Source: Candidatus Omnitrophota bacterium
GTDB lineage: Bacteria; Omnitrophota; Gorgyraeia; Zapsychrales; Fredricksoniimonadaceae
Direction: 5' to 3'
DNA length: 64,000 bases
NCBI GenBank assembly: GCA_903901225.1
Contig: CAIUQE010000035.1
Location: 9,249 to 73,248, forward strand
Both the position numbers and the translations under genes were made by a program. Shown piece by piece: positions 2,947-22,591 of this stretch; within the stretch, counting starts at the first letter, position 1; every line of letters starts with the position of its first letter. The notes beneath the pieces were generated by a model. It worked only from the letters and a program-made list of their open reading frames with translations, had not been told where the DNA came from and did not search any database.

Positions 2947-5900
2947 TTGAAGAATTGTACGCGAGTGTTGCGTAAATTTATTGCCACCGTATTGATCCTG
3001 GCCTTCACGCTGATGGATCTGCGCGCCTATGCCCAGGGGGTGATCCCCTTGCCGCCGCCAGGCACGCGCCTGGCCCTCAGCCCTATTGTTGCCCCACCGC
3101 TGCTCAAGGGCATCAAGGTGTTCCGTGACGATCCTTTCCGTTTTGATTTTATCCTCGATAAAGGTGACGCGCCGTCCACGGATACGCAGGTTAAAACAGA
3201 TTCAACCCGCCTGATCAAATACTTCCTCGCCGCGCTCACAGTCCCTGAAAAAGACCTCTGGGTCAACCTTTCGCCCTACGAAAAAGACCGCATTGTGCCC
3301 GAAGCCTTTGGCCAGACCGAGATGGGGCGTGATCTTCTGGCCCAGGATTACATTCTTAAACAGATAACGGCATCAGTTCTCTATCCGGATGAGAAAACTG
3401 GCAAGGAATTCTGGGCTAAGGTCTACGCCGAAGCGCAGCAACGTTACGGCACAACCGACATCCCGGTGGACACCTTCAACAAAGTCTGGATCGTCCCGGA
3501 GAAAGCCACCGTCTATGAACACCAGGACGCCGCCTTTGTGGTCGAGAGCGGATTGAAAGTCATGTTGGAAAGTGATTACGTAGCCATGTCCCGGGCGGAC
3601 ATGAAGTCCGCCCCTACAACACAGGGTGTTGCTCTCATGAGCGTAGGGGAGGACCTTGTGTCCTCCCGTAACGAGATCGCAAAAAATGTTTTACGCGAAG
3701 TCATCATCCCCATCCTCGAAAAAGAAGTCAACGAAGGCAAGAATTTCGCCACGCTCCGCCAGGTTTACAACTCCCTCATCCTGGCCACCTGGTACAAGCG
3801 CAAGATCAAAGCCAGCATCATGGGCCGGGCGTACGTCGACCAAAAGAAAACCGCCGGCGTTGACATTGTTGACAAGAACGAGAAGGAAAAGATCTGGGCC
3901 CAATACGTCGAAGCCTTCAAGAAAGGCGCGTACAACTTCATCAAGGAAGAATATGACCCGTCCACGCAAACCACGATCCCCAGGAAGTATTTTTCCGGTG
4001 GGATGGATTGCTCGATGGAGGTGTTCAAGGTAAATGTAACAGATGCGGCTATGCCGGTTGAGGCAATTACCCCAGGACGTGACGTTGTTATCGGTGTAAC
4101 AGGGGCGCTGGAAAAGCCTGCCTTTGAAGAAAATTACAATTTGAAGACATCCGATCAGGACCACGCCATGTTCTCATCGGCGTTAAACATCAAATACAGG
4201 CCTGAGGTCGAACGAATTTATGATATTTACAGCCAGTTCATAAAGGATGGCGGAGGTTATGTATTGCCGTTTTCAAAAGAAAAAGCAGTGAAAAGATTAG
4301 ATTTTCGTTCAGCGGCGAAATCGTATTTTATTGCCGGATGTTATCTTGGTGTTGCCCTTGCTGTAGGTGGTATTCAGTATAGCCTGATACCGGATTCATT
4401 TTTTTTCCAAACAATTGGCAGTTCCATAAAAGTTCTTTCATTAGCGATGTTTTTTTATAAATCTTATACTTCTTTCCTGTACGGCGGGCTTCAGCCACTA
4501 ACTCATAAAGTTATCATGACACGGGCAACAGGTAAACTTGATGCTTTTCATGCGTATGGTATTTCTCATGAGATGGCCCATGTTCTGGAAATGCCAAAAA
4601 ATATTATATATGCTAATGCGTATGGTTTCTTAATGAGCAAGAAACTTGGCTATGAACATTCCAGCTATGATGAGAACATGGCTTTAATTTATGATTTGGA
4701 TATGTTTTCGTCTAAGAATCTGAATGACCATATCTGTCGTGGGCCGGGGTATGCGGTCGCCAATATTATTTTAAAAGAATTTCCCGGCACCTTGTCGGAT
4801 CAGGAGAGGTTGCTTAGAAAATTTCTTCAAGCAGTAGAAAGAAACGAATTTATGCTGGATGAAAGCATAAAAGATGCTTTGAAAAAGACACGATCAAGCC
4901 TGGAAGAGAAAGATTACTTTATAGTTGCTCCCAAACGTGAAAAAAGTTGGATATATCGATATGGGAACGGGATCGCTCAGCTGGCGTTACGGCATTACAA
5001 CAATGACGTTGACGCCGCGTTGCGATATATTTATCGGCTTAGTCGGCAACGGGATTCAAGGTTGGCAGATAAGCCCGTTGATAATGCTATGGAAGAAAAA
5101 AATGACGGCGGGATCAAAGATTTCAATGAAAAATCATTACTTGCCCCCCACCGCCTGACGATCGCCGAAGCCAGGGAGCGCTTGATCGACAGTTTAAAGG
5201 TCATCAAGGCGCATTATCCTGCTTTTCAAAAAGCTTGTTCCGATGGGCTTGAGGTTTTCAAGAACGAAGGAGTTAAGGCATTTGAAAGCAGATCTTATCC
5301 GGTGATCAAGGCAGAGGCCGATGCCCTTCGGGTCCACGTTGACGCGGTGAAGGCATTGCCCGCGTTATTGGGCTTTTCAGAGCCGGAAATGAAAGCCAAA
5401 CTGGATCCGTTCCTGCGGCAGATCGCTGAAGAAGCAAAAGTGGATAAGGTCCTTATTTCGTTCAGGACTGGTTTTTATTATGATTTTTCTTATACGAGCG
5501 GCTTTACGGATGAAGAAATTATGAATTTCAGATTACAGAACGATGAAATTTTCGATGTGATCTCTAATTCCGGAATTCAAATGAGTCCTGAGAAAATAGC
5601 CAAGGGGATGAACGCGTTAAGATCCGCGGGTATGGTTTCAGCACTCGACGTATCAACAGACGCAAAATGGTTGATCAAGATAGAGGATTCTTACATTTCA
5701 ATCGTTATCGGGCGCTCAGCGCAAGGGGTTTCATTGAATGGAGAGCTTACGGATAATGACAGGAAGGCTTTGGCCACGAAGTTGAACGCATTTGTAAGGA
5801 ATGGCCAAGCTCCGTGGTATGGGGTGAGGAAGTTTCTTGACGACAATCAATATAAAACATTTGACGATTTTATGTATTTCTTAAGGCACAACAGCGGGAT

Positions 5901-6819
5901 TGGTCCTTTAAAGGAACACATACTCCCGATCATTTATAATAATATTCCGGAATTGCTGAAAGGATCTCCCGCGCAAGACGGAAGGATTCAGCAGCGGGAT
6001 GATCACATTATTGGAAACATGGTAGAAGTATTAAAACAAACACAACTCCTTGGTAATGTGGAAACATTTTTGCAGTTATTGGAAAAGGGGGCTGAATTTA
6101 AATCTTGGGATATTTCAGGAGAAGTTCATCAGAGAGTCGCGTCATTTAAAGGGATGGCGGAAGACAAGAAGCTCAAGCTTGATATTTCCGGTCTCACAAA
6201 TGAAGCGCTGATCGTCCCTGCGTGCGACCTGAACTGGCTGGATGTGGTGGTGGATAATCTCCTTCAGAATGCCATTAAATATACATCGGCCGGCGCGGTG
6301 AAGGTTCGTCTTTCTAAAAAGATGATGCACGCGGAAGATCCTGATTTAGAACAAGCATTTGCTGTTCTGGAAGTCGAAGATACGGGCATAGGTGTTCCTG
6401 CAGATGAAAGGGTTGCAGTATTGGAGAGAGGATACCGGGCAACGAACGCGATCGCCGCTAAGATCAAAGGCACGGGCATAGGGTTGGATGCTGTTTCTAC
6501 TATTCTGCGCTTGATGCAAGGCGATATTACGGTTGAACCCGGTGAGAATGGAATAGGTTCAAAATTCATCGTCCGCTTGCCGCTTGTTCAAGATCCAAGC
6601 CAGGATCAAGCTGAGGTACCTTTACCCGGCGGCATCGACCTTAACCCGGCGCAACTTGATCTTAAAACGCAGAATTCCGGCGGCGAGATCGCTTTCAATC
6701 TTGACCCCACGTTGCTCGCCCGCCTGCAGAATGCTTCCGGCATTTCACCCGTGATCGTCAGTGTGCGGCCGCTGGACAGCATTTCTGCATTCATGGGGAT
6801 CCAGAAGCCTGTGAAATGA
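2947..6819 (+). CDS. giant (1290 aa) secreted/membrane protein, paralogue A: conserved N-terminal ~330 aa domain, two TM helices, C-terminal GHKL/HATPase_c ATPase domain, conserved ~60 aa C-terminal tail
   Basis: TTG start with an AAAGGA SD 6 nt upstream. Signal peptide ending AYAQG. Residues ~35-365 are ~65% identical to the 17180 protein. N-box LLQNAIKYT, G1 VEDTGIGV and G2 GTGIGLD motifs are present near the C-terminus, but no recognisable H-box. The last ~60 aa (GGIDLN..DL....G..F.DP...) are shared with the paralogue. Confidence 0.75.
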   Translation: MKNCTRVLRKFIATVLILAFTLMDLRAYAQGVIPLPPPGTRLALSPIVAPPLLKGIKVFRDDPFRFDFILDKGDAPSTDTQVKTDSTRLIKYFLAALTVPEKDLWVNLSPYEKDRIVPEAFGQTEMGRDLLAQDYILKQITASVLYPDEKTGKEFWAKVYAEAQQRYGTTDIPVDTFNKVWIVPEKATVYEHQDAAFVVESGLKVMLESDYVAMSRADMKSAPTTQGVALMSVGEDLVSSRNEIAKNVLREVIIPILEKEVNEGKNFATLRQVYNSLILATWYKRKIKASIMGRAYVDQKKTAGVDIVDKNEKEKIWAQYVEAFKKGAYNFIKEEYDPSTQTTIPRKYFSGGMDCSMEVFKVNVTDAAMPVEAITPGRDVVIGVTGALEKPAFEENYNLKTSDQDHAMFSSALNIKYRPEVERIYDIYSQFIKDGGGYVLPFSKEKAVKRLDFRSAAKSYFIAGCYLGVALAVGGIQYSLIPDSFFFQTIGSSIKVLSLAMFFYKSYTSFLYGGLQPLTHKVIMTRATGKLDAFHAYGISHEMAHVLEMPKNIIYANAYGFLMSKKLGYEHSSYDENMALIYDLDMFSSKNLNDHICRGPGYAVANIILKEFPGTLSDQERLLRKFLQAVERNEFMLDESIKDALKKTRSSLEEKDYFIVAPKREKSWIYRYGNGIAQLALRHYNNDVDAALRYIYRLSRQRDSRLADKPVDNAMEEKNDGGIKDFNEKSLLAPHRLTIAEARERLIDSLKVIKAHYPAFQKACSDGLEVFKNEGVKAFESRSYPVIKAEADALRVHVDAVKALPALLGFSEPEMKAKLDPFLRQIAEEAKVDKVLISFRTGFYYDFSYTSGFTDEEIMNFRLQNDEIFDVISNSGIQMSPEKIAKGMNALRSAGMVSALDVSTDAKWLIKIEDSYISIVIGRSAQGVSLNGELTDNDRKALATKLNAFVRNGQAPWYGVRKFLDDNQYKTFDDFMYFLRHNSGIGPLKEHILPIIYNNIPELLKGSPAQDGRIQQRDDHIIGNMVEVLKQTQLLGNVETFLQLLEKGAEFKSWDISGEVHQRVASFKGMAEDKKLKLDISGLTNEALIVPACDLNWLDVVVDNLLQNAIKYTSAGAVKVRLSKKMMHAEDPDLEQAFAVLEVEDTGIGVPADERVAVLERGYRATNAIAAKIKGTGIGLDAVSTILRLMQGDITVEPGENGIGSKFIVRLPLVQDPSQDQAEVPLPGGIDLNPAQLDLKTQNSGGEIAFNLDPTLLARLQNASGISPVIVSVRPLDSISAFMGIQKPVK
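3593..3667. repeat. REPIN-like hairpin doublet, copy A, in frame inside CDS (GGGCGGAC-atgaa-GTCCGCCC ...32 nt... GGGAGGAC-cttgt-GTCCTCCC)
   Basis: Two 21-nt hairpins (8-bp GC stem, 5-nt loop) 32 nt apart. Additional CCCCTAC/GTAGGGG pairing bridges the spacer. Homologous to the copies at 17832 and 10929. Confidence 0.8.
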
Positions 6820-6837
6820 TCGAACGATAACGGGGCG

Positions 6838-7134
6838 TTATTTCAGGAACCGTCGAACCTGGTCGTGGTTGCCGGCGAGCATGGCGGTGAAGGCGAGGCC
6901 GTCTTTGCGCAGGACGAGGCGTAATTTTCCCTCAATGCCGGCTTCGTAGAATGGCCGGCGCAGTTGCTTGAAAAAGAACCGCGGCGCGATCTTTTGCGCT
7001 TCCGTGAGGTCGTTGTTCGTTGAGAAATAAGCCAGCAAGGCCCGCAGGGCTGTTTTGACGGTTTCTTTTTGCTGTGGATCAAGGCCTTTGACGTCGCGCT
7101 CGAAGGACGGGAGCCAGGCGAGGGTATACGGCAT
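6838..7134 (-). CDS. type II toxin, RelE/ParE superfamily (98 aa)
   Basis: 98 aa basic protein with a C-terminal ...MLAGNHDQV motif typical of RelE/StbE-like toxins. Overlaps the upstream antitoxin gene by 4 nt. Convergent with giant gene A, with 18 bp between stops. Confidence 0.55.
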   Translation of the reverse strand: MPYTLAWLPSFERDVKGLDPQQKETVKTALRALLAYFSTNNDLTEAQKIAPRFFFKQLRRPFYEAGIEGKLRLVLRKDGLAFTAMLAGNHDQVRRFLK

Positions 7135-7137
7135 GGG

Positions 7138-7380
7138 CTACAGCCTTTCGATATCCCTGGCCGTTACCTTCTTCGCGGTGTTCTTTTCTTTCTGGTAGAC
7201 GGACTCCAGCCTGGCATATTCCTCATCCGAAAATATTTTTTCGACCGTTTCCAGCGGCACCAGTTCAAGGCGGTTGCCTTTGATATGGATATCAAAAAGC
7301 GCCCCTTCCGCGAGGTGCATTTCATTGATGAGTTTTTTGGGGATCGTGATCTGGTTCTTACTGGTCAGTGTGATGGTCAT
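7138..7380 (-). CDS. AbrB/MazE/SpoVT-family antitoxin (start at internal Met, MTITLTSKNQITIPKK)
   Basis: Swapped-hairpin DNA-binding motif ITIPKKLINEMHL..G. A strong SD (AAGGAG) lies 6 nt upstream of the ATG at 7380 on the minus strand. Forms an operon with the toxin. Confidence 0.65.
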   Translation of the reverse strand: MTITLTSKNQITIPKKLINEMHLAEGALFDIHIKGNRLELVPLETVEKIFSDEEYARLESVYQKEKNTAKKVTARDIERL

Positions 7381-7549
7381 GGACAGCTCCTTATTGTGGT
7401 ATAAGTTTACCATATATTCTGAAATTCCGTAAAGAAGAAAGTAAGGCTATGGAATTGGACTATCGGGTTGCGAACTGGGCCGCAAAATCCGGGTTGACCG
7501 GGTCGATTGAGGCGTTTATAGTAAAGGTGACTATTAATATATTTTCGAT

Positions 7550-7921
7550 TTGTGCCATGAAATGGGGACGCAAATGCGTAGTGAACGAGTGAGTTATAAA
7601 CATAAAAGCCTCGCCGCTGGCCGGTGGAAAGAATTGACGTTCTGCGCGCAAATGGCCAATATCGGCAGTGAAGTGGAACGCGCGCTCAACTGGCAGGCGA
7701 AACAAAATCCCGGTTACAGCCTCAAGGCGGTGGAGCGGGCGCTGGAATTGCTTGACCTGACCCTGGACAGCGTTGCGGGTCTGGCGCGGCGCAGGGAAGT
7801 TGCCCGTGTCCGCGAGGCGGTTGTTGATTTCTTTATGGGTTCCAACGAGTTTTGTTCGACGGACAAATCCTGGCGCGGATATTTTCTCCCCTTTACTTTT
7901 GCCGCGCGGCGTTTAAAGTAA
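7550..7921 (+). CDS. hypothetical protein (123 aa), start uncertain
   Basis: ORF only. Helical, weak similarity to four-helix-bundle type proteins. No clear SD. Confidence 0.25.
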   Translation: MCHEMGTQMRSERVSYKHKSLAAGRWKELTFCAQMANIGSEVERALNWQAKQNPGYSLKAVERALELLDLTLDSVAGLARRREVARVREAVVDFFMGSNEFCSTDKSWRGYFLPFTFAARRLK

Positions 7922-7988
7922 TTCGCGATCGAACGTGACGTTCACATAGTTGAAGTAACCAAAAAAACACCTTATCAACGAGGTCCTC

Positions 7989-8756
7989 ATGAAGCGTTTT
8001 TTCTGCTGTATGTTGTTACTTGCCGCCGGGTTTTTTCCCGTCGTTTCGTCGGCTCAGGGCAACAGTTTGTCCGATATCCAGACCGCCATTATCCAGGAGG
8101 ATTACAAGAAAGCCGGTGACCTGGCCAAAGATCTTCTGAAGACGAAGCCTTCGGGCAATGAGCTGGCCCAGGCGCGTTATTACCTGGCGCTGAGCGACCT
8201 GCGCCAGGGCAATTATCCGCAGGCGTATGAGATGTTCCGCAAGGTCGTTGATTCCCGTCCGGCCGCGGATATTTTTGAGAAAGCGACTGTGGGCGTGATC
8301 GACGCGCTTTACATGCGGGGGGATTACGAGAGCGCGTTGAACGAAGCGACGCAGTTCATGAATAAGCACCGTAAGGCCGAGGACATGAGCCTGATCTACC
8401 TTAAAGCGGCCCGCTCGAACCTGAAACTGGCCCGCTGGAACAAGGCGAAGGAATTCCTGGAAAAGATCGTCGTGGAATATCCGAACAGTTTTGAATGCGG
8501 CGTGGCGCGACAGCTTCTGGAAGAAAAACAGTATTTCACGGTCCAGGTCGGGGCTTTTGTCGAGCAGGCCCGCGCCGAGCGGTTGGTGCAGGAGCTGATG
8601 CGTCAGAAAGAGTATGCCTATGTGGTCGAGACTAAGTCGCCCGACGGCAAGAATTATTATCGTGTGCGCGTCGGCCAGCTCGCGGCCCTGAAAGACGCCC
8701 AGGCGCTCGAGTCCAGGCTTTCCGGCTCCGGTTATCCGACGCGCATTTATCCGTGA
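7989..8756 (+). CDS. TPR-repeat / SPOR-domain periplasmic protein
   Basis: Signal peptide, TPR-like repeats (AQARYYLALSDLRQGNYPQA...), and a C-terminal SPOR domain (YFTVQVGAF...YYRVRVGQ). Confidence 0.7.
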   Translation: MKRFFCCMLLLAAGFFPVVSSAQGNSLSDIQTAIIQEDYKKAGDLAKDLLKTKPSGNELAQARYYLALSDLRQGNYPQAYEMFRKVVDSRPAADIFEKATVGVIDALYMRGDYESALNEATQFMNKHRKAEDMSLIYLKAARSNLKLARWNKAKEFLEKIVVEYPNSFECGVARQLLEEKQYFTVQVGAFVEQARAERLVQELMRQKEYAYVVETKSPDGKNYYRVRVGQLAALKDAQALESRLSGSGYPTRIYP

Positions 8757-9667
8757 ACAAACCCCCCGTTATTTTTATCGCCGGCCCGACAGGTGTCGGG
8801 AAATCCGCGGTGGCCATGGCTTTCGCGGGACTCGCGACGCCAGAGGCTGTCGAGATCGTCGCGTGTGACGCCATCCAGGTCTACCGTGAGGTGGCGATCG
8901 CCAGCGACAAGCCTTCTTCCGAAATGCGCCGGCAGGTGCGGCATCATTTGCTGGATGTTGTTTCTGTTGTTGAGGAATTCAACGCGGCGCGATATCGCGC
9001 GCTGGCGGTCGCGGCGGTCGATGATATCCTTGCCCGCGGGAAACAACCCGTGATCGTCGGCGGCAGCGGGATGTACATGATGGCCTTGCTGGACGGTCTT
9101 TTTGAAGAAGGCGGGGCCTCGGAAAGCCTGCGCGTCGCGCTGGAAGGCAGGGAGCTTTCCGGCCTTTACGCGGAATTGCAACGCGTTGACCCCCAGGCGG
9201 CCGCAAAGATCTCATCGAATGACAAAAAACGCATCGTGCGCGCGCTGGAAGTTTTTCACGCGACGGGCGTGCCCATGTCCGTTCAGCAGAAGAAACGCGA
9301 AGGCCTGTGGGGCAAGCATGACATTCGTATCATCGGCCTCGAACGCCCACGCGCTGAACTATATCGTCGGGTGGAGGCGCGGGTTGACGCGATGTTCGAC
9401 GCCGGGCTCGTTGACGAGGTGAAAGGTTTATTGCGCAGGCCGCTTTCTTTGACGGCGGCGCGCATCATCGGCGTGCCCGAGATCAAGGGTGTTCTTAACG
9501 GTGAGTATGATCTGGAACGCGCGCGGTATCTGATCAAACTGCACACGCGCCATTACGTGAAACGCCAGATGACATGGTTCCGCAAGGACAAGCGCCTGCA
9601 GTGGCTGGTGCCGGGGCCGAATGAGACCGCCCCAGAAACAGCGCAACGCATAAAGGATATGATATGA
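8753..9667 (+). CDS. miaA: tRNA dimethylallyltransferase
   Basis: P-loop IFIAGPTGVGKS, typical length (304 aa) and MiaA core motifs. GTG start overlapping the upstream stop. Confidence 0.9.
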   Translation: MNKPPVIFIAGPTGVGKSAVAMAFAGLATPEAVEIVACDAIQVYREVAIASDKPSSEMRRQVRHHLLDVVSVVEEFNAARYRALAVAAVDDILARGKQPVIVGGSGMYMMALLDGLFEEGGASESLRVALEGRELSGLYAELQRVDPQAAAKISSNDKKRIVRALEVFHATGVPMSVQQKKREGLWGKHDIRIIGLERPRAELYRRVEARVDAMFDAGLVDEVKGLLRRPLSLTAARIIGVPEIKGVLNGEYDLERARYLIKLHTRHYVKRQMTWFRKDKRLQWLVPGPNETAPETAQRIKDMI

Positions 9668-10911
9668 AAGAAAAGATACTGCTGGCGATCGTGGATATGA
9701 AGCTTCGGAATGCCTGGCCGGTTGAAGAAGTTATCCATGAGATGACGGAACTTGTGAAGGCGTGCCAGGGCGAGGTGGTGGGGCATATTATTTGCCCGGC
9801 GCATCCTCCGACGGCCGCCACGCTCATTCACAGCGGCAAGGTCCTTGAGGTCGCTGAATTGGCCCGTGTCCAGGGCGCGCAGGGGGTTGTTTTCAGCGAG
9901 GAGCTTAAGGGTGTCCAGCAGCGTAATCTTGAAGAAGCGCTTGCCGTTAAGACGATCGACCGCACCCAGCTTATCCTCGATATTTTTGCCCGCCGCGCGG
10001 TATCGCTCGAAGGGAAACTGCAGGTCGAGTTGGCCCAGCTGGCGTACCGCCTGCCGCGGCTGGCCGGCCATTATGACGACCTTTCGCGTCAGGGCGGCGG
10101 CATCGGCACGAGCGGCCCCGGCGAGACCAAGCTTGAGGTGGACCGCCGGCGCATTGCAGTGCGCATCGACAAGCTCAAGAAAGACCTTTTGGATGTGACC
10201 CAGAGCCGCATGACCAAACGCAAGAAACGGGAGTTGCAGCACATCCCGCTCATTTCGCTCGTCGGTTATACCAACGCGGGAAAGTCCACCCTTCTTAACA
10301 CGCTGACCGGCGCCCATCAGGCAACCAAAGACGGGCTGTTCACGACGCTTGATTCGCTCGCGCGCCAGCATGTCCTGCCTGATCGGCAGAAAGTTGTTTT
10401 TTCGGACACGGTCGGGTTCATGCGCGAGCTGCCGCACAACTTGATCGAGGCGTTCAAGGCTACGCTTGAGGAAGTGCAGAGCGCGGACATCCTCCTGCAC
10501 GTGGTGGATGTCAGCAATCCGCGTTACCGCCATTTGAAAGAGAGCGTCGACCAGGTGCTTGACGCGCTGGGGGCGCTGAACAAGCCGACGATCCTGGTCT
10601 TCAACAAGATCGACCGGGTCGAGGACAAGGAAGAGCTTGAAACGGCCTGCGGAAGATACGGCAATACCATCGCGGTTTCGGCGCTGGAAAAACAGAACAT
10701 CGACGGGCTCCTGCGCCTGATCGAAAAAGAACTGGGCGGGCGTGTCGTGGCGGTGGATGTGGCGATCCCCGTCAACCGCATGGATCTGGTGAACATGGTC
10801 CACAAGCAGGGCCAGGTCGAAGCCATTGAATACTCGGGGGAGAGCATCCGCGTGAAGGCCGTCGTGCCCCAGCAGCTCGCCGGGCTTCTTGAGAAAGCCG
10901 CTGCGTCCTAG
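9664..10911 (+). CDS. hflX: GTPase HflX
   Basis: HflX N-domain followed by G-domain motifs (GYTNAGKSTLLNTLTG, DTVGF, NKID). Confidence 0.9.
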   Translation: MKEKILLAIVDMKLRNAWPVEEVIHEMTELVKACQGEVVGHIICPAHPPTAATLIHSGKVLEVAELARVQGAQGVVFSEELKGVQQRNLEEALAVKTIDRTQLILDIFARRAVSLEGKLQVELAQLAYRLPRLAGHYDDLSRQGGGIGTSGPGETKLEVDRRRIAVRIDKLKKDLLDVTQSRMTKRKKRELQHIPLISLVGYTNAGKSTLLNTLTGAHQATKDGLFTTLDSLARQHVLPDRQKVVFSDTVGFMRELPHNLIEAFKATLEEVQSADILLHVVDVSNPRYRHLKESVDQVLDALGALNKPTILVFNKIDRVEDKEELETACGRYGNTIAVSALEKQNIDGLLRLIEKELGGRVVAVDVAIPVNRMDLVNMVHKQGQVEAIEYSGESIRVKAVVPQQLAGLLEKAAAS

Positions 10912-10928
10912 AACTCCGTTGAACGTAG

Positions 10929-11009
10929 GGGCCGACCTTGTGTCGGCCCGAAACATTTGCCGGATATCATAAGGATGCATTCTCCGACGGGAGGACACAA
11001 GGTCCTCCC
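10929..11009. repeat. REPIN-like hairpin doublet, copy C, intergenic (GGGCCGAC-cttgt-GTCGGCCC ...39 nt... GGGAGGAC-acaag-GTCCTCCC)
   Basis: Same 21-nt hairpin unit as inside the giant genes. The two hairpins are in mutually inverted orientation. Lies 18 nt after the hflX stop. Confidence 0.8.
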
Positions 11010-11045
11010 CCACGCACCATTTAAACATTCACAGAAAATTTTTTC

Positions 11046-11074
11046 TTGACAAAATCCAAGGTGAGTTGTATATT
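11046..11074 (+). promoter_or_regulatory. sigma70-type promoter TTGACA-17-TATATT
   Basis: Perfect -35 hexamer, 17-nt spacer and TATATT -10, ~150 nt upstream of the MORN gene. Confidence 0.6.
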
Positions 11075-11117
11075 TTAGCAGTAACCCATTGAGAGTGCCA
11101 GAATCAGTGGGTTTTTT
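11075..11117 (+). promoter_or_regulatory. CIRCE-like element (TTAGCAGTA-N9-GAGTGCCAG) overlapping a 10-bp stem-loop followed by a U-run (intrinsic-terminator-like leader)
   Basis: Each half matches the CIRCE consensus 7/9. The stem AACCCAUUGA/UCAGUGGGUU (one G-U pair) has an 11-nt loop and is followed by UUUUUU. It sits immediately after the -10. Confidence 0.4.
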
Positions 11118-11226
11118 CCGGCAAAGATTTTGGCACTCAATATCCAAGAGTGATAGAAACACTTGAACCAGAATTTTGTTGTTTGATAATTGCAACACCT
11201 GACGCGTCTGGTAGAATGAAGGGGCC

Positions 11227-12237
11227 ATGTTCAAACGCTTCCTCTTTTTTGCTATCGTTTGCGTTATCAGCGTTGCCAGCGCCTGGGCCCAGGACAAGGT
11301 CAAGGATGGTTTTTACAACGAGTACGATGCCAAAGGCGTTCTGGTCCGGGCCGTGGAATACCAGTTGGGCGTGCCTCACGGGCGTTTCCGCGCGTATTAT
11401 CCCGACGGGCGCATCAAGGCCACGGGCCATTATCTCAACGGCCAGCTTGACGGGGAGCTTGAGGAATATCGTCCGGACGGAAAACCCCTGACGCGGGCTG
11501 TTTACCGGCAGGATCGTTTGCACGGGGTGAAGGTGTCGTATTATCCCGACGGTGTGATCAAAAGCGAGGAAACGTTCATTGAGGGCGCGAAGGACGGGGT
11601 GAGCAAGGAGTATGACCGGCTCGGGCGGCTCGTCTGGGCGCGTTCTTTCCGGCATGCCCAGGAGGATGGTGTTTCAAAACAATACTATCCCAGCGCGCGG
11701 GTTTATCGTGAGTATGAGTATAAGAACAATGTTCAGCACTGGTATATCCGTGAGTACGCCGAGGACGGGAAGCTCACAGGCGTGTATCAGGCGGATAACG
11801 GGCTGCGTGAAGGGTCGGGCAAGGAATATTTTACCACGGGCGAGATAAAGCTCGACGGGTTCTTTGAGAAGGATCAGCTGAACGGCCTTGTGAAGATCTA
11901 TGACAAGAACGGCCATCTTCATATCCGGGCGAATTATACGGCGGGCCATATTGATGATGCCGCCTGGCGCGAATATTACGAGACGGGTGAATTGCGCTGG
12001 GTCGTGCCGGTGCGCCAGGACCTGAAAGAAGGCCTGGGCCGCGAGTATTTTGAGAACGGCGTTCTCAAGAGTGAGGGCAGCTTCGCCCATGACAAGCGTG
12101 AGGGCGTTTTCAAAATATTTGATACGGAGGGCATCCTTGTCGCGGAAGATAAATACAAGGCGGACTGGCTCCTGCGGCATACGGAATTCTATCCGTCGGG
12201 AAAGGTAAAGACGGACAAGTATTTTTTTGATCAATGA
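11227..12237 (+). CDS. MORN-repeat (YwqK-like) secreted protein
   Basis: Signal peptide, then ~12 tandem YxDGxxxxEGxYxNGxxxG-type MORN variant repeats. Confidence 0.65.
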   Translation: MFKRFLFFAIVCVISVASAWAQDKVKDGFYNEYDAKGVLVRAVEYQLGVPHGRFRAYYPDGRIKATGHYLNGQLDGELEEYRPDGKPLTRAVYRQDRLHGVKVSYYPDGVIKSEETFIEGAKDGVSKEYDRLGRLVWARSFRHAQEDGVSKQYYPSARVYREYEYKNNVQHWYIREYAEDGKLTGVYQADNGLREGSGKEYFTTGEIKLDGFFEKDQLNGLVKIYDKNGHLHIRANYTAGHIDDAAWREYYETGELRWVVPVRQDLKEGLGREYFENGVLKSEGSFAHDKREGVFKIFDTEGILVAEDKYKADWLLRHTEFYPSGKVKTDKYFFDQ

Positions 12238-12243
12238 CCGGTA

Positions 12244-12272
12244 TTGACAGGGATGGGTCTTTTTTTTATACT
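12244..12272 (+). promoter_or_regulatory. sigma70-type promoter TTGACA-17-TATACT (hrcA operon)
   Basis: Consensus -35, 17-nt spacer containing a T8 run, and TATACT -10, 70 nt upstream of hrcA. Confidence 0.55.
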
Positions 12273-12341
12273 GTGCGCCTGGCAATAAGACCGCTTGATT
12301 GCTAATTTGCGGGCCGGGATAAACATTCAAAGGACGCGTAT

Positions 12342-13070
12342 ATGCGCAAAAGTTCGCACGAGAGGAAAGACGTTGTTCTGGGCATGGTGGTTCGCCATTA
12401 TATCCAGACCACGGTCCCCGTCAGCTCCGCCTATATCGCCGAGGAGTATGAGAAGGACATCAGTTCGGCCACGATCCGCAATATCCTCGCCGAGCTTGAG
12501 GGTGACGGCTATCTCATGCACCCGCATACGTCGGCCGGCCGCGTCCCGACTGAACGAGGTTATAGATATTACGTGGATTTCCTGATGCAGGAGATCCAGC
12601 TTATTGAAGAAGACCGCCGCCGCGTCCACAAGGAATACGAGCGCGGCATCGAAGAGTTGGAAGCGCTGGTTGAAACAACGACCGAGGTCCTTGCGGATCT
12701 GACGCATTGCACGAGCATCGTGAGCGTGGACGGCTGGACGCACCATTATGTTTGTCGCGGCACGAATTATCTTGCCGAGGCGATCGGGATGCAGGGCCTG
12801 CAGAAGGTCGTGGCCATCCTCAAGGCCCTGGAAGAAAAAGACCGGGTGCTGGCGGTGTTGCGGCGCGACCTGGACAGGCGGATCAAGATCTATATCGGGC
12901 AGGAAACGGATTGCGATGCTTTTGACGGTTGTGCCATGGCGGTGGCGCGTTTTGCGACACGCCGAGGCCCGGCGGGACGCATCGCGGTGCTTGGGCCCGT
13001 GCGGATGGATTATCCCCGGGTCGTTTCCACCCTGGAATATGTTTCTGAATTGATGCATGAGGCCATGTGA
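12342..13070 (+). CDS. hrcA: heat-inducible transcription repressor HrcA (short, 242 aa)
   Basis: N-terminal winged helix (SSATIRNILAELEGDGYL...HTSAGRVPTERGYRYY) and C-terminal GPVRMDY motif. First gene of the hrcA-grpE-dnaK-dnaJ order. Confidence 0.85.
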   Translation: MRKSSHERKDVVLGMVVRHYIQTTVPVSSAYIAEEYEKDISSATIRNILAELEGDGYLMHPHTSAGRVPTERGYRYYVDFLMQEIQLIEEDRRRVHKEYERGIEELEALVETTTEVLADLTHCTSIVSVDGWTHHYVCRGTNYLAEAIGMQGLQKVVAILKALEEKDRVLAVLRRDLDRRIKIYIGQETDCDAFDGCAMAVARFATRRGPAGRIAVLGPVRMDYPRVVSTLEYVSELMHEAM

Positions 13071-13588
13071 AAGATATGACACCGGAGAACGAACAGGATA
13101 TGGATGATATTCCCGCTGAACCGCAGGTCGCGGACGCGGCGGAGACGTTGAGGAAGGATCTTGACGAGGCGAAAGACAGGTACATCCGCCTTTTCGCCGA
13201 GTTCGAGAACATGCGCAAGCGCCATGACCGGGAGCGCTCCCAGATCATCAAGTACGCGCATGAGGAAGTGATCATCGAGATGCTCGGGTTTTATGAGGAT
13301 TTCGAACGCGTGATCGTGGCGGCCAAGGCCAATCCGTCAAACGCGTCGGAACTCGTCAAGGGCATTGAGATGATCTACGGGCGGATGCAGCAGCTTCTGA
13401 AAAAGTACGATGTGCGCGAGATCGAGGCTGTGGGCAAAAAATTCGACCATAATTGCCATGAGGCGCTGATGGTCGAAGAATCCGCGGAACATGAGGATGG
13501 CACAGTGCTCGAGGTTTTTCAAAAAGGGTTTATGCTGGGCGACAGGGTGGTGCGCACGGCCAAGGTTAAAGTTTCCAAGAAGAACTAG
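13067..13588 (+). CDS. grpE: nucleotide exchange factor GrpE
   Basis: GrpE motifs (RLFAEFENMRKR...) and a 4-nt overlap with hrcA. Confidence 0.9.
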   Translation: MKDMTPENEQDMDDIPAEPQVADAAETLRKDLDEAKDRYIRLFAEFENMRKRHDRERSQIIKYAHEEVIIEMLGFYEDFERVIVAAKANPSNASELVKGIEMIYGRMQQLLKKYDVREIEAVGKKFDHNCHEALMVEESAEHEDGTVLEVFQKGFMLGDRVVRTAKVKVSKKN

Positions 13589-13600
13589 GAGGTAGCGAGT

Positions 13601-15523
13601 ATGAGTAGAGTTATTGGTATCGATCTGGGAACATCGAATTCAGCGGCCGCGGTCCTTGAAGGGGGCCGTCCGGTCATCATCCCCTCGGCCGAGGGCGCCG
13701 GGGTCGCGTCGGGCAAGGCTTTCCCGTCGTTCGTGGCGTTCACCAAGGACGGGCAGAGGCTCGTGGGTGAGCCCGCGCGCCGTCAGGCGGCCATGAACTC
13801 CGAAGGGACCGTCTACGCGGCCAAACGCAAGATGGGGACGGACCACAAGTTCAGCGTGTTCGGCAAGGACTTCACGCCCCAGCAGATCTCGGCGTTCATC
13901 CTGCAGAAGATCAAGGCCGACGCGGAAAAGTATCTGGGCGACACGGTCGAAGGCGCGGTCATCACGGTGCCGGCGTATTTCAACGACAACCAGCGCCAGG
14001 CCACCAAGGACGCGGGAGAGATCGCGGGCATGAAAGTCCTGCGCATCATCAATGAGCCCACGGCCGCGTGCCTCGCCTACGGCGTTGACAAGGCGGGCAA
14101 GGAACAGAAGATCATGGTGTTCGACCTCGGCGGCGGGACGCTCGACGTGACCATCCTTGAGATGGGCGAAGGCGGGACCTTTGAGGTTCTTTCCACCAGC
14201 GGCGACAACCTGCTTGGCGGGACGGACATGGATAATGTGATCATCGATCATATCGTTCAGACGTTCAAGAAAGAAACAGGCATTGACCTGATGAAGGACA
14301 AGATGGCGTTCCAGCGCTTGCGCGAGGCGGCGGAGAAAGCAAAAGTGGAACTGTCATCGACGATCCAGACCGACATCAACCTGCCGTTCATCTCGGCGGA
14401 CGCTTCAGGCCCGAAGCACTTGACCATGTCGCTTGACCGGGCGAAGCTGGAAAGCCTTGTCGGCCCCATTGTCGAACGTTGCCGCGGTCCGATCCGTCAG
14501 GCGATGAAGGACGCGGGCGCCAAGATCGGCGGCGAGGTCAAGATCGACAAGATCATCATGGTCGGCGGCCCCACGCGCATGCCCATCGTGCAGAACTTTG
14601 TCGAGAAAGAGGCCGGCCAGAAGATCGAACGCGGCATTGACCCCATGGAATGCGTGGCGCTCGGCGCCGCGGTGCAGGGCGGCATCATCAAGGGGGATGT
14701 GAAGGACGTCCTTCTTCTGGACGTGACGCCGTTGTCGCTGGGCATCGAGACCATGGGCGAGGTTTTCACCAAGATCATTGAGCGCAACACGACCATCCCG
14801 ACCAAGAAGAGCCAGGTCTTTTCGACCGCGGCCGATAATCAACCGGCGGTGACCATTCGCGTGCTGCAGGGCGAGCGCAAGATGGCCAGTGATAATACCG
14901 AGCTGGGGAAGTTCGACCTCGTGGGCATCCCGCCCGCGCCGCGCGGCGTTCCGCAGATCGAGGTGACCTTTGACATCGACGTGAACGGCATCGTGCATGT
15001 CCACGCCAAAGACAAGGCCACGGGCAAGGAACAGTCCATCCAGATCACGTCGCCGAAGAAACTTTCGGAGAACGAGATCGACCAGATGGTCAAGGACGCG
15101 GAAAAGTACGCGGCTGAGGACGAGAAGCGCAAGGAAGAGGCGGAATTGCTCAACCAGGCGAACACCCTGACCTATTCGACGGAAAAAGCGCTCAGTGATT
15201 ACGGCGATAAAGTCCCGCAGGCCGAACGCGATACCATCCTCAAGGAACTTGAGGGCCTCAAGCAGGCGGTCAAGGACAAGGCGGCTGATCGTATCAAGTC
15301 GTCCATGGAGTCGTTGACCAAGTCCAGCCACAAGCTCGCCGAGGAGATGTACAAGGCGACCCAGGCGCAGCAGGGCGGCGCCCAGGGGCAAAGTGGCGCG
15401 GGAGCGCAGGAGAACGCGGGCCCGGGGCCGGAAGGTTCCCAGGAGCAGCCCGGTCCGGACAAGAAGTCCGGCGGTAAGGAAGACGTGATCGACGCGGATT
15501 TCAAGGTCCAGGACGATAAATGA
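13601..15523 (+). CDS. dnaK: molecular chaperone DnaK (Hsp70)
   Basis: [19 protein letters not shown] and other Hsp70 signatures. 640 aa. Confidence 0.95.
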
Positions 15524-16662
15524 AAAAGGACTATTACGAGATCCTCGGCATAAAGAAAGATTCGGACGCGGCGGAGGTGAAGAAAGCGTATCGCCAATTG
15601 GCGATGCGCTTTCACCCCGACCGTGTTGAGGAGAAGGAAAAGAAGTCCGCCGAGGAGAAGTTCAAGGAGATCTCCGAGGCTTACGGGGTGCTTTCCGACC
15701 CGCAGAAACGCGCGACGTATGACCAGCACGGCCATTCCGGGATTGACCAGAACTACACGTCGGACGATATTTTCCGCGGTGCTGATTTCTCGAGCGTCTT
15801 TGGTGATGGCGGCGGTATGGAAGATATCCTCAGCCATTTCTTCGGCGGGGCGTTTGGCGGCGGTGGCGGCGGCAGCCGGCGTTCGCGCGGGGCGGCGCGG
15901 GGCCGTGATATCCAGTATGAAGTGGAATTGAGCCTTGAAGAAGCGTTCAGCGGCATGAAAAAGACCATCAAGGTGCCGCGCAACGAAGTGTGCGGTGATT
16001 GCCGGGGTTCGGGCGCCAAAGGCGGCACGGCCATGGCGGAGTGCGCGACGTGCGCCGGGCGCGGGCAGGTCATGGTCAACAGCGGTTATTTCCGCCTGGC
16101 CCAGACATGTCCGAATTGTCGCGGCGCGGGGCGCATCATCAAGGAAACCTGCCCCTCATGTCGGGGCGTGGGATATAACCGGATGACGCGCAACATCGAC
16201 GTCAGTTTTCCGGCGGGTTTGGACAATGATTCCCAGATGCGGGTGCGGGGCGAGGGCGAAGTGGGCCAGGGCGGCCCGGGCGACCTTTACCTTTATATCC
16301 GCGTGCGCGAACACGCGCGGTTCCGCCGGGTCCGCAATGACCTGGAGATGAACCTCGCGGTCAGTTTTGTGAAAGCGACGCTCGGCGGTGAGGTCAGCGT
16401 GCCGACGCTGAGCGGGCATGTGACGATGAAGTTGCCGGCGGGGACGGAATGCGGCAAGATGTTCCGGATCAAGGGCAAGGGCATGCCGGATGTGCACTCC
16501 CAGGGGTCGTTTGGCGATCTTTACGCGAAAGTGGTGATCGATGTTCCCGCGAGGCTGGACGCCGAACAGCGCCGGTTGCTTGAGGAATTTGCCAAAGCCA
16601 GCGGCGAAACCGTGGATGGCGCCGGTTCTTTTAAAGACAAAATAAAGAAAGTATTCAAATAA
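15520..16662 (+). CDS. dnaJ: molecular chaperone DnaJ
   Basis: J-domain (YYEILGI...HPDR), a G/F region and four CxxCxGxG zinc-finger repeats. Confidence 0.95.
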
Positions 16663-17050: not shown

Positions 17051-17179
17051 AACTCACAACTGGATTTTTTTGTGCCACAAACTTGCATTTTGCTACATTA
17101 TGTGCTATTTTTCTGCTTAAACCACCTATTGACAGATCGACTTTGTTCATAAACCCTTAAATTTTTGAGGATTAATGCC

Positions 17180-20100
17180 ATGAAGAAGACCTTTTATTTT
17201 CGATTTATTTCTGCCTGGATCCTTGTCAGTTTCCTGACAACCGGGGTGGTCCCGTCGGGCGCATACGCGCAGGCGTTGAACCTTCCGGCACCGGGGACCA
17301 TGGTATCCCTGACACCGGCCTATATGCCGATCCTCATGAAGGGTGTCCGGGTGCATCCCGAGAACCCTCTTTTGTTTGACTTTATCCTCGATAGCGGGAA
17401 ATCCGCCCTCAAGGCTGAAAGCCCTGAATTCAAGGCTGAATCCCAAAAACTCATCAAGTATTTCCTGGCGTCATTGACGATCAAGGAAGAAGACCTGTGG
17501 GTCAACTTGTCGCCTTACGAAAAAGACCGGATGATCACCGATGAGCTGGGCAAGACCGAACTGGGGCGTGACATGCTGGCGCAGGATTATATCCTCAAGC
17601 AGTTGACCGCTTCCCTTATATACCCCGAGAAGGATCTCGGCAAAGCATTCTGGGACAGGGTTTACTCCAAGGCGCGGGAACAATTTGGTAACACAGATAT
17701 CCCGGTCGACACCTTCAACAAAGTCTGGATCACAGCCGACAAGGCCAAGGTCCTCGAACGTAACAACGTAGCCTACGTCGTCGGCGCGCATCTGAAGGTG
17801 ATGCTGGATGTGGATTATACCGCTGCTATGCGGGCCGACACAAGGTCGGCCCCTACAACCAATAATGTTAGTGCGAAGGGCGTAGGGGAGGACCTTGTGT
17901 CCTCCCGCGATGAGATCGCCCGACAGGTCATCCGCGACGTCGTCATCCCCGAGATCGAAAAAGAAGTCAACGAAGGCCAAAACTTCGCCATGTTGCGCCA
18001 GATGTTCTATTCCATGATCCTCGCCTCCTGGTACAAGCTCGCGCTCAAGGATGCGCTGCTGAATCAGGTATATAGCAATCAAGCCAAGACCAGCGGGGTC
18101 CTGTCCGACGATCCGGCGGTCAAGGACAAGATCTATACGCAGTATCTGGAAGCCTACAAGAAGGGCGTGTTCAATTATATCAAGGAAGACATGGACGCTG
18201 TGAGTCAGCAGCCTGTGCCGCGGAAGTATTTTTCGGGTGGGCTCAATTTATTTCCCAAGGGATCTGAAACTGTTGAGTATGCGCAAGCGGCAACGCAGGA
18301 GCAGATAGCGAATATTACGTTTTCAAAATTATGGTCTATTTCCGTTCTGGTTACCCGAGAGCGGACGCCACCTTCTAAGGCAACAGAGACGGAGCCGACG
18401 ATCCTTTATGATCTGTGGGGAAGCATGGAAGTTACACCTGCAGTAGATCTCTATAAATTGGAAAGTTGGTGGATAGAAGGGGGAGAATATTGGAAGGCTT
18501 TCGTGAATCTCAAGAAAGCCCTCGATACAGATGCCAAATATACTCGTTTTGATGACATGGGCAAGGCGGAAAATTATATATCTGGAAAAAAATTTAAAGA
18601 AGCTGAAAAGATATTAAGGCAGGTCATATCAGCCAATCCGGAGTATTCATTGGCCTATGCCTATTTAGGGTTGGCCTTATGCGCGCAAGGCAATACTGAA
18701 GAGGCATACAAGAATAATATGAAAGCCGCGGAGCTGGATGCCATTAACAAGATCGAAATAAGAAAATTTCCGCAAAGGCCATTGTCGCGTGCGGCGAGAC
18801 TTGAAAGATATATGCAAATTTTCAGAAAATTTTTTCCTCAAAGAATGACGTATGAAGCTTTTGTGGATCGTGTTTGGGATGGCAGGATCAAGGAAAACCC
18901 CAGGATCAAGGTCCAAACTTATTCGGCGAATAAAGACAAAAAAAGTATTTATGTGGGGAAGTTGAATAAAATTGGCCCATACTTGGAGCTCTTTATTCAA
19001 CCTGAGGAAGGGGATGGGGTAAAAATAGATTCCTACAAAATTAAAAGGATCACTGTTTATCCCGATTTAGCTCAGGTGAAAGAGGCGTCTGACGCGGCGG
19101 AAAAGAGCTTATCTGTTGAAGAAATGATCTCATTGGGACAATTGCATGAACGCCAAGGTGATTTGGAAAGTGCGGAAAAATATTTTCGTGATGCTGTGAA
19201 AAAGAACGGCAATGATGCCAGGGCCCACGCGGTCCTTGGCGTGTTTTTGAGATCTGTGAATCGTCTGGATGAGGCCGTGCAAGAGTTGGAGATAGCTCAA
19301 AACTTGGATCATCAGTATTATCCTGAGTATTTTACCGTCGACGGAATCCAAAAGCTGATAGATGGATATGTAGTTGATGCCATTGAGGATTTTGAAGAGG
19401 CAGTGAAATCAGATGAAGAGATGGCATTGGCTTATGCGTGGTGGGGGATCGCCTTGAATGCCGCAGCAGATAAAAAAGCCAAAAGAGAGGGGGGGCAAGT
19501 CTCGGGATCTCAAAGAAGCGAGGCACTTGGTTATATAAAACACGCGTTGATATTGGATCCAGAAAACAAGGAGATCAAAAGACTTCTTGCCCTTCTTAAG
19601 CCATCCTTTTTATCAAAGGTGAGGTTCGCCAGGGATTTCACCGGGGAAACAATGAGCGCTGAACAGTTTAAAAAAGCGATTCTGACGGGGAAGATCCAGC
19701 CGGGGACCAGGATCAAGATCAAACGGGTCTTTGAAGAAGGGGTTTCCACGGGGATCACGGATAATGTCGTTTTTGGATATGTCGAGACAACGCCCCATAG
19801 CAGTACGCCTGACATTGTTTACAATCTCCCGTTATTTACAGGTGATGGAAAAATAGTGAGTCTTGATAAAATTGTTGAGGTTACTGTTTACGACGCGTCA
19901 ATGGAAACTATCACGGCGCCCGAAGGCCTGGAGAACTCAAATCAAACATTGACCATCAAGTCCGACGCGGCGGAAAAAATATCAGGGTCAATGCGTCAAA
20001 CGGATGCTGAAATTATGGCAGGCCTGGAAGAAATAATGGCTCTTCCTGATGCATCGAAAGAAGCCATGGAGCAAGTTTTGTCAGATTTTGCGCAGGGAAT

Positions 20101-21202: not shown

Positions 21203-21219
21203 ACGGGAGTGAACCTGGG

Positions 21220-21921
21220 TTAACCCGCGGGTGGTCCTGAAAGGGCCTGCAACATGACAATGGTGTCTTCAATAAGCTGTTTTCTGGCCCATTGTTTTTG
21301 ATCTTCGTCCAGGGCGGTGCCCAATCCCTGCAAGATGTTCCTGGGCGTAAAAGTCTTCCTGATGAACTTGATCGTCATCTGGATCAATTCATCCGTCCCC
21401 TTGCCTGTCCGTTCACGGATCAGGTCAGAATCAGCGCGGAATCCTGACTTGAGGAAATACCAGATATCATACAGATCCCGGGCGACAGGTGTTTTACGGT
21501 CAGTCAAAGCCACCAGTTTATTCGTCAGAAGGGTGGTTTCCTCGGGGATAGTGAGGGAAACGCCCAGGAACAGGACAGGTTTGAATTTGTTAGCCGTCCA
21601 AAGCCTTTTGTTAAGCTCGATCTTGATGTTGGGATAACCCGCGCCGTAGTCAAGGACACCCAAAAGTGTAAAGTGTTTGTCTTGCCAGTCGAGGATGCGG
21701 CCCTCCCGGGCCAGGATGGAGCGTAAGCGCGCGACGTCATCATCGGAGAAAGGCTTGAGCATATCGAAATCCAGGTCAAAAGAGAAGCGGGGAAGGCCGT
21801 AGAAGAAGAGCGCGCACGTGCCGCCTTTAAAGGCGATCTTCCCGGGAAATGCTTTGGTAATGGACGTCAGCAAGCTTGTCAAATATCGGCGATGAAGCGC
21901 CTGGTCAAACTTGCGTTCCAT
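21220..21921 (-). CDS. AbiEii/AbiGii-family nucleotidyltransferase toxin (type IV TA / abortive infection)
   Basis: FKGGTCALFFYGLPRFSFDLDFDM nucleotidyltransferase motif. Convergent with giant gene B, with 17 bp between stops. Confidence 0.75.
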   Translation of the reverse strand: MERKFDQALHRRYLTSLLTSITKAFPGKIAFKGGTCALFFYGLPRFSFDLDFDMLKPFSDDDVARLRSILAREGRILDWQDKHFTLLGVLDYGAGYPNIKIELNKRLWTANKFKPVLFLGVSLTIPEETTLLTNKLVALTDRKTPVARDLYDIWYFLKSGFRADSDLIRERTGKGTDELIQMTIKFIRKTFTPRNILQGLGTALDEDQKQWARKQLIEDTIVMLQALSGPPAG

Positions 21922-22516: not shown

Positions 22517-22591
22517 ATAGTCAAATAACTGTTATTTAATATTCAAAAGGGAACACTTTTCATTGAAAGATGTCATGCGTTAAACCTTTCC

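Follow-up and report, generated by a model that had tools for sequence, protein, structure and literature searches.

In a 64,000-nucleotide stretch of a metagenome-derived Candidatus Omnitrophota genome (GenBank assembly GCA_903901225.1, contig CAIUQE010000035.1, positions 9,249 to 73,248; hereafter, the window), two related large genes, A and B, are each followed by a convergent toxin-antitoxin (TA) module, here denoted TA1 and TA2. Across 154 loci encoding members of the same gene family, TA modules occupy 19 of the 264 junctions that flank a family gene and 6 of the 1005 other junctions (odds ratio (OR) 12.9, p=3e-9). The adjacency of TA modules to this family is non-random, and the architecture of that adjacency is not conserved. 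On balance, we consider it probable, by no means assured, that TA modules behave as mobile cargo and gather at the borders of a hypervariable gene family, which are prone to recombination.

The original prediction, made from the letters of the window, held that each of the two genes is followed 17-18 bp downstream by a convergent TA module of a different family. The open reading frame (ORF) map and the sequence bear out the coordinates exactly, with gaps of 18 bp after gene A and 17 bp after gene B, and profile searches together with fold comparison confirm that the two pairs belong to unrelated families, RelE-fold/MazE and AbiEii/AbiEi, respectively. Considered by itself, the window, with approximately 8 real intergenic boundaries, yields p ~0.04 for both modules lying downstream of A and B, and p ~0.2 for both modules lying at any of the four family flanks. 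As evidence against coincidence these values are unconvincing, and we therefore surveyed family loci in other genomes.

The survey covered two sets of loci, individually designated below by L numbers: set 1 comprised 80 loci from Omnitrophota genomes, retrieved with an alignment of the conserved N-terminal domain (N-domain) of the family, and set 2 comprised 74 non-redundant metagenome loci independent of set 1. Genes in the surveyed loci were called with our own dicodon model, which matches the independent gene calls for the window and misses some overlapping genes, and small proteins were classified by aggregate Pfam scans, per-protein Pfam scans and reading of the sequences by eye. Each junction between non-TA genes was counted as a site, and a junction was considered a probable transcription-unit boundary when it contained a residual gap of at least 100 bp or a strand switch. 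The modules at L059, L114, L100 and L147, which have weak or no profile support, were left out of the strict counts.

Nineteen TA modules were found in set 1, where TA modules occupied 11 of 147 family-flanking junctions compared to 3 of 587 other junctions (OR 15.8, p=3e-6); when the comparison was restricted to transcription-unit boundaries, the counts were 10/102 versus 2/142 (OR 7.6, p=0.003). The enrichment was replicated in set 2 (8/117 family-flanking versus 3/418 other junctions; OR 10, p=4e-4), also when only Pfam-supported toxins were counted (5/117 versus 2/424; p=0.006). Given the diversity of the TA families and of their arrangements, many separate events appear to be involved, although the loci are not formally phylogenetically independent. 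The simplest alternative is that, with many TA modules and many paralogues around, two of the former came to follow two of the latter by accident. It is compatible with the window-only values and with the presence of TA homologues in unrelated contexts as well. Nevertheless, the survey statistics, replicated in independent sets, disfavor it, as does the finding that TA1 and TA2 both have their nearest homologues beside family genes too, so that we regard coincidence as highly improbable. Had it been at work, family genes elsewhere would be expected to have no TA neighbors, and TA pairs to be scattered at random, which is not what either set contains.

At least 12 TA families adjoin the family genes, among them ParE, RelE (PF06296), Gp49/HigB, BrnT, PIN, HicA, YhaV, HepT/MNT, DUF4160, a new RelE-fold clade and AbiE. 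Some neighboring gene pairs are harder to assign. Directly upstream of family genes at L059 (9212-9848) and L114 (9210-9880) lies a pair encoding an AbrB-like protein of ~112-126 aa and a ~98-aa protein with a terminal histidine motif; three of these four proteins have no Pfam match, and the 98-aa L114 protein was covered by the aggregate scan. This pair may represent another unrecognized RelE-like TA family. At L120 (18919-19591) and L147 (10222-10919), a gene for a DUF5678 protein (~77 aa) overlaps one for a ~150-aa protein in a TA-like layout; the pair is located directly beside family genes twice, once between two of them, and the ~150-aa partner has no Pfam match in the L147 copy.

A TA1 module with 87% identity (L167/L168) is again convergent with a family gene, at a distance of 14 bp, and the C-terminus of that gene is 72% identical to the conserved C-terminal module (C-module) of gene A; on its other flank are rpsB-tsf, unlike in the window. 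In blastn, window positions 6626-7446 and L167 positions 1895-2714 align as one contiguous 824-bp block of 81% identity, which starts at the GGIDL motif opening the C-module, covers the spacer, the toxin and the antitoxin, and ends ~35-70 bp upstream of the antitoxin start, near 7450, with no similarity on either side. Within the block, the last ~100 bp of the large gene look the best conserved, at roughly 95% by eye. Judging from this alignment, a TA operon and the C-module of a family gene can be passed on, or exchanged, together while their surroundings differ. More distant homologues of TA1 are found between two family genes (L077), between ribF and mraZ (L173), after a sulfite-reductase-like gene (L161), within a TA cluster in a glycosyltransferase region (L164) and beside a giant gene that does not belong to the family (L169).

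AbiE pairs with 81-86% identity to TA2 lie beside family genes in three arrangements: convergent in the window, co-directional in L178/L179 (86%/84%), where the pair immediately follows a B-like family gene of 645 aa, and, in L175 (81%), as part of an island that comprises five or six TA modules and comes right after tandem family genes. The corresponding homology block (window 21246/21320-22528, blastn) stops short of gene B. The L175 island (3366-10177) carries MazE/PrlF-like, RelE+MqsA-like, AbiEi/ii, ParE and RHH+PIN_3 genes, and its tandem family genes occupy 10256-15759. Genes of mobile elements are present near other family genes, namely, a DDE transposase fragment (L016) and IS66 orf2 (L106, L153), and integrase or phage-like genes flank the family gene in L146. 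None of the 80 genome loci contains the neighboring genes of the window, and because there is no syntenic locus among them, dating of the insertions by an orthologous empty site is impossible. Two pairs of direct repeats were considered as insertion marks, one bracketing TA1 (6757-6780/7364-7387, 75% over 24 nt) and the other upstream of the gene after TA2 (22569-22590/22689-22710, 77% over 22 nt); both are treated as chance because they are weak two-copy matches, and the TA1 pair is less similar in L167.

The geometry that makes the two window junctions look alike does not extend to the family. The prediction that the modules occupy a fixed position and orientation failed in the survey: TA modules downstream of family genes are convergent in 4 of 17 cases (the two in the window, L003 and L167), the rest being co-directional. 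Thus, examination of other family members for convergent TA neighbors upheld the adjacency but not the convergent architecture. Modules adjoining family genes are found on both sides and on both strands, approximately 40% of them upstream, at distances from -21 to ~560 bp; 11 of 117 downstream and 10 of 168 upstream junctions are occupied, and the strand is mostly that of the family gene. In the window, essentially all genes are on the plus strand. Apart from the TA modules, no minus-strand gene is called with confidence (a score of at least 20 in the dicodon gene caller, with which the independent calls around both modules agree), so that any minus-strand insert converges on the preceding gene.

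Spacing, too, follows the norm of these genomes. Among the 767 junctions of 80 related loci, 34 are convergent, with a median gap of 11.5 bp and 62% of the gaps no longer than 30 bp; these gap sizes are unaffected by start-codon errors because they are defined by stop codons only. The earlier remark that there is no room for a terminator was right insofar as a scan for hairpins and U/A tracts detected no terminator-like site in or across either 17-18 bp gap, but this is general in these genomes. Folding of 121 nt around each junction, on both strands, gave z-scores of +0.65/+0.75 for gene A-TA1 and -0.44/-0.19 for gene B-TA2, none beyond shuffled controls, and the junctions had no Rfam match. 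Convergent junctions of this short, terminator-less kind characterize the type of genome, not the pairing. The absence of a terminator-like hairpin and the near-zero fold scores make read-through into the opposite gene physically plausible, and the convergent junction is kept in L167, which would be in line with another idea raised in the original prediction, antisense control, in which the TA and large-gene transcripts, with overlapping 3' ends, would act on one another. Such regulation is, however, very unlikely as a conserved mechanism because the orientation is not conserved; moreover, the closest AbiE homologue is co-directional with the B-like gene it follows, and gaps of this kind are the genome-wide norm.

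TA1 is a genuine TA module. Its antitoxin matches PF04014 MazE_antitoxin (28.6 bits, cut-off 24.7) and TIGR01439 AbrB (31.1 bits, cut-off 28.3), the antitoxin gene is located 3 bp upstream of the toxin gene, and a MazE-type gene of 80-81 aa directly precedes the toxin gene in every homologous TA1 locus examined. The toxin has no match in Pfam (even at E=10) or NCBIfam, the superfamily profiles PF05016, PF06296 and PF15738 included, and no meaningful match to PDB sequences in phmmer searches with the single sequence or a profile. Its AlphaFold model, built from an alignment of homologues (pLDDT 92.8), consists of elements in the order E-H-H-H-E-E-E-E-H, and the top 30 Foldseek matches of this model in the PDB are all RelE, YafQ, YoeB, HP0894, ParE or HigB toxins (TM-scores ~0.45-0.69, probability mostly 1.00), to which solved structures it is 10-21% identical in sequence. 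By its modelled fold, the protein is a predicted type II toxin of the RelE superfamily. The clade around it comprises 32 clusters, three of them with a source organism name, all Omnitrophota; in the clade alignment, H90, part of a GNH(D) motif close to the C-terminus, does not vary, nor do K56, R59 and E64/E68. Neither Pfam nor NCBIfam detects the clade, which will therefore be under-counted in TA censuses of Omnitrophota.

TA1 resembles PrlF-YhaV and other RelE-superfamily modules (RelBE, DinJ-YafQ, YefM-YoeB) in having a small toxin with the RelE microbial-RNase fold and an antitoxin gene directly upstream. PrlF carries an AbrB/SpoVT-type DNA-binding antitoxin domain, as does the TA1 antitoxin, and YafQ and YoeB share with the TA1 toxin a conserved C-terminal histidine. 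Among known arrangements, PrlF-YhaV is the closest to a toxin of this fold paired with an AbrB-fold antitoxin, and the antitoxin of the L077 homologue matches PF15937 PrlF_antitoxin. Unlike the known toxins of the superfamily, the TA1 toxin falls within no Pfam or NCBIfam toxin profile and is known here from its sequence and model. Between TA1 and the TPR/SPOR gene there is a plus-strand ORF (7550-7921; 123 aa at its longest, 89 aa in the independent calls) with no family match.

TA2, from a family unrelated to TA1, is a genuine AbiE-type TA module; AbiE is an abortive-infection system. AbiEii scores 58.5 bits against PF08843 (cut-off 22.5), and the signal for AbiEi is weak, with both matches below threshold (PF13338, 18 bits, cut-off 25; NF047376, 26 bits, cut-off 150). 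The antitoxin gene comes first and overlaps the toxin gene by 17 bp (21905-21921), a layout shared with L175-L179, where the AbiEi partner adjoining AbiEii is 81-84% identical. There are 557 AbiEii homologues across several phyla, with PF08843 annotated on all close ones, and homologues with 50-60% identity occur in several phyla, a spread that suggests horizontal mobility. The AbiE systems of Lactococcus and Streptococcus agalactiae have the same AbiEii nucleotidyltransferase domain, which in TA2 is well above threshold, and are likewise bicistronic with an overlapping upstream partner, which in TA2 measures ~180-200 aa and gives a weak signal for the AbiEi winged helix. Unlike those systems, TA2 has an AbiEi below the curated cut-offs, is chromosomal in an uncultured member of Omnitrophota, and is known from its genes alone.

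Table. Features of the window that make up the two large genes and their adjoining TA modules (positions count from the first nucleotide of the window)
Feature	Position	Strand	Description and basis
Gene A	2947-6819	+	1290 aa; ORF map and sequence
Gene A, signal peptide and conserved N-domain	~2947-4010	+	similarity to gene B
Gene A, variable low-GC middle with HATPase_c	~4011-6625	+	HATPase_c 69 bits (Pfam)
Gene A, conserved C-module	~6626-6816	+	similarity to gene B
Spacer, gene A stop to toxin stop	6820-6837		18 bp; sequence
TA1 toxin	6838-7134	-	98 aa; RelE-superfamily fold (predicted)
TA1 antitoxin	7138-7380	-	80 aa (independent gene calls); longest ORF to 7413; AbrB/MazE (SpoVT-AbrB) fold
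Presumed TA1 promoter/operator and ribosome-binding site region	7381-7450	-	end of the block common with L167; putative function
Gene B	17165-21202	+	1345 aa by ORF, 1340 aa by independent gene call
Spacer, gene B stop to AbiEii stop	21203-21219		17 bp; sequence
AbiEii nucleotidyltransferase toxin	21220-21921	-	233 aa; PF08843
AbiEi-like antitoxin/regulator	21905-22516 (longest ORF)	-	start probably 22444 or 22474 (179 or 189 aa, independent calls)
Promoter-like TTGACT-N18-TACAAT upstream of AbiEi	22495-22524	-	consensus scan; inside the AbiE homology block; putative function

Genes A and B are paralogous at their ends only. Their N-domains, each with a signal-peptide-like start, are 53% identical over 351 aa and their C-modules 33% identical over 76 aa, whereas the middles show no relationship, that of gene B being a different low-GC segment with TPR repeats; no third paralogue is present within the 64-kb window. 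The two proteins, called giant in the original prediction, are better described as large, given that family members elsewhere exceed 3700 aa. More than 1389 proteins have a homologous N-domain, those with a source name being almost all from Omnitrophota/Omnitrophica, and genomes carry several paralogues each. The N-domain (~350 aa) has no Pfam match, and its AlphaFold model, of moderate confidence (pLDDT 70), has no fold match in the PDB; its invariant motifs in the family alignment include WVNLSPYE and LAxDYxLKQ. Both genes are mosaic in composition: the N-domains and C-modules have a GC content of 52-55%, the middles of A and B 38-46% (~4000-6400 and ~18400-20800), and the housekeeping backbone (miaA, hflX, hrcA-grpE-dnaK-dnaJ, accD and others) 55-63%, which suggests that the low-GC middles are recently imported cassettes. 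TA2 is at ~50%, the stretch including the TA1 toxin (6801-7200) at 56% and that including most of its antitoxin and the promoter (7201-7600) at ~44%. Small ORFs consisting of the C-module only, with the GGIDL...P(V)I motif, were seen at L122 (4893-5147), just after a family gene, and at L155 (18584-18877), and may have arisen as tails separated by a frameshift or be modules encoded in their own right. On the 5' side of gene A, the contig carries three unannotated ORFs, a secretin gene and a gene for a TraC_F_IV / P-loop_TraG-type ATPase; these may make up an apparatus, for secretion or akin to conjugation, by which the family proteins are handled.

The signal peptides of the large proteins, their proximity to secretion genes, the recurrent adjacency and the abortive-infection nature of AbiE invite the thought that the TA modules act jointly with the secreted proteins, for instance in defense against phages or in controlling the machinery of predation or attachment. 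Yet the partner TA families are interchangeable, with at least 12 unrelated ones involved, there is no conserved operon structure, and TA modules are autonomous elsewhere. We therefore think a functional partnership most improbable and infer that there is no direct functional link between the modules and the proteins they adjoin.

Accumulation as mobile cargo would proceed as follows. TA1 and TA2 would be autonomous, self-regulated operons that were acquired independently, each transcribed toward the large gene from a putative promoter of its own on the side away from it. TA1 would be a type II module in which the toxin is presumably a ribosome-dependent mRNA endonuclease and the AbrB/MazE-fold antitoxin neutralizes the toxin and represses transcription; TA2 would be an AbiEi/AbiEii type IV module with a predicted nucleotidyltransferase toxin and a winged-helix regulator. 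The modules would end 17-18 bp from the stop codons of the large genes because this is normal convergent spacing in compact, co-directional genomes. The borders of the family would be flexible, insertion-tolerant and recombination-prone sites in an otherwise streamlined genome, where homology between the conserved terminal modules probably provides anchor points, such that blocks consisting of a C-module and a TA module may be exchanged between genomes. Any stabilizing effect on the neighboring locus would be a by-product.

Stabilization could, conversely, be what is selected for, with TA modules retained because post-segregational killing penalizes deletions and so protects recombination-prone paralogues. 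TA cassettes protect superintegrons and SXT-type islands. Such addiction would fit the strong, replicated enrichment at family borders, the several paralogues per genome whose conserved ends could drive deletions, the TA modules between tandem family genes (L069, L077), the multi-TA island by tandem family genes in L175 and the co-inheritance of the C-module with TA1. But only about 7% of the family-flanking junctions carry a TA module, the A-B interval contains hflX, miaA and hrcA-grpE-dnaK-dnaJ, such that a deletion between the paralogues would probably be lethal anyway, and passive accumulation predicts the same pattern; we rate selected stabilization as rather unlikely. Marginally easier to entertain, if still doubtful, is a scheme in which the N- and C-modules are portable homology arms that capture and exchange foreign DNA, both low-GC middles and TA modules, by one- or two-sided homologous recombination, the captured modules then stabilizing the loci. 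If this were the case, the family borders would be an integrase-free, previously undescribed hot spot of gene capture, functionally akin to an integron platform.

Several observations weigh against the view that TA modules are simply mobile cargo accumulating at the family borders. The enrichment is still ~7-fold at probable transcription-unit boundaries, and therefore "any permissive intergenic site" is not a full explanation, which makes specific targeting or a selective link possible. Nor does large gene size by itself seem to attract TA modules, which were found at 0 of 41 junctions beside non-family genes of at least 800 aa, an underpowered comparison (p=0.06). Neither TA1 nor TA2 is flanked by a transposase, an integrase, a tRNA or a convincing target-site duplication, and there is no tRNA in the window. 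The block comprising the C-module and TA1 may not have been transferred at all but inherited vertically, with its flanks replaced later. Finally, the counts depend on gene calls from our own model and on a TA census made partly by eye and from aggregate Pfam counts, and some loci of both sets are possibly related, L059 and L114, for example, sharing one module.

Accumulation of unrelated TA families at one kind of variable locus is known from TA cassettes in superintegrons, genomic islands and defense islands, such as the Vibrio superintegron and mosAT on SXT. The family loci share with these the multi-TA islands (L175, L040, L164) and the debris of mobile elements nearby. Unlike in integrons, the recurrent landmark here is the border of one paralogous family, not a defined mobile element; no integron integrase or attC site was seen, with no search aimed at them.

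Within Omnitrophota, giant-protein loci have been described with flanks rich in mobile DNA, including one RHH antitoxin (10.64898/2026.06.07.730766, section 10), and RelE, HigBA and MntA pairs have been reported as cross-replicon mobile cargo (10.64898/2026.05.20.726742), while a study of Omnitrophota giant proteins (West-Roberts et al. 2023, 10.1101/2023.11.21.568195) does not mention antitoxins. The proteins described in two of these reports (10.1101/2023.11.21.568195; 10.64898/2026.06.07.730766) are, like A and B, large multi-domain proteins with signal peptides and HATPase_c or TPR domains, and are encoded in loci with secretion genes and mobile-DNA-rich flanks, just as secretin and ATPase genes lie near gene A; unlike them, A and B are only ~1300 aa long. 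The family defined by the N-domain and C-module, and the enrichment of TA modules at its borders, appear in none of the three reports, and we consider the clustering of TA modules at the borders and the shared C-module/TA block to be modestly novel.

As TA modules, the two are ordinary: they add one RelE-fold/AbrB pair and one AbiE pair to those already known. The ~13-fold enrichment, in turn, marks the borders of this family as flexible sites within streamlined, co-directional genomes, and the block extending from the C-module to the TA module that is common to different genomes provides a concrete handle on the shuffling of mosaic genes and their neighbors. Should homology-anchored capture or selected stabilization lie behind it, the enrichment would help to explain the diversification of surface and effector proteins in predatory or host-dependent Omnitrophota.

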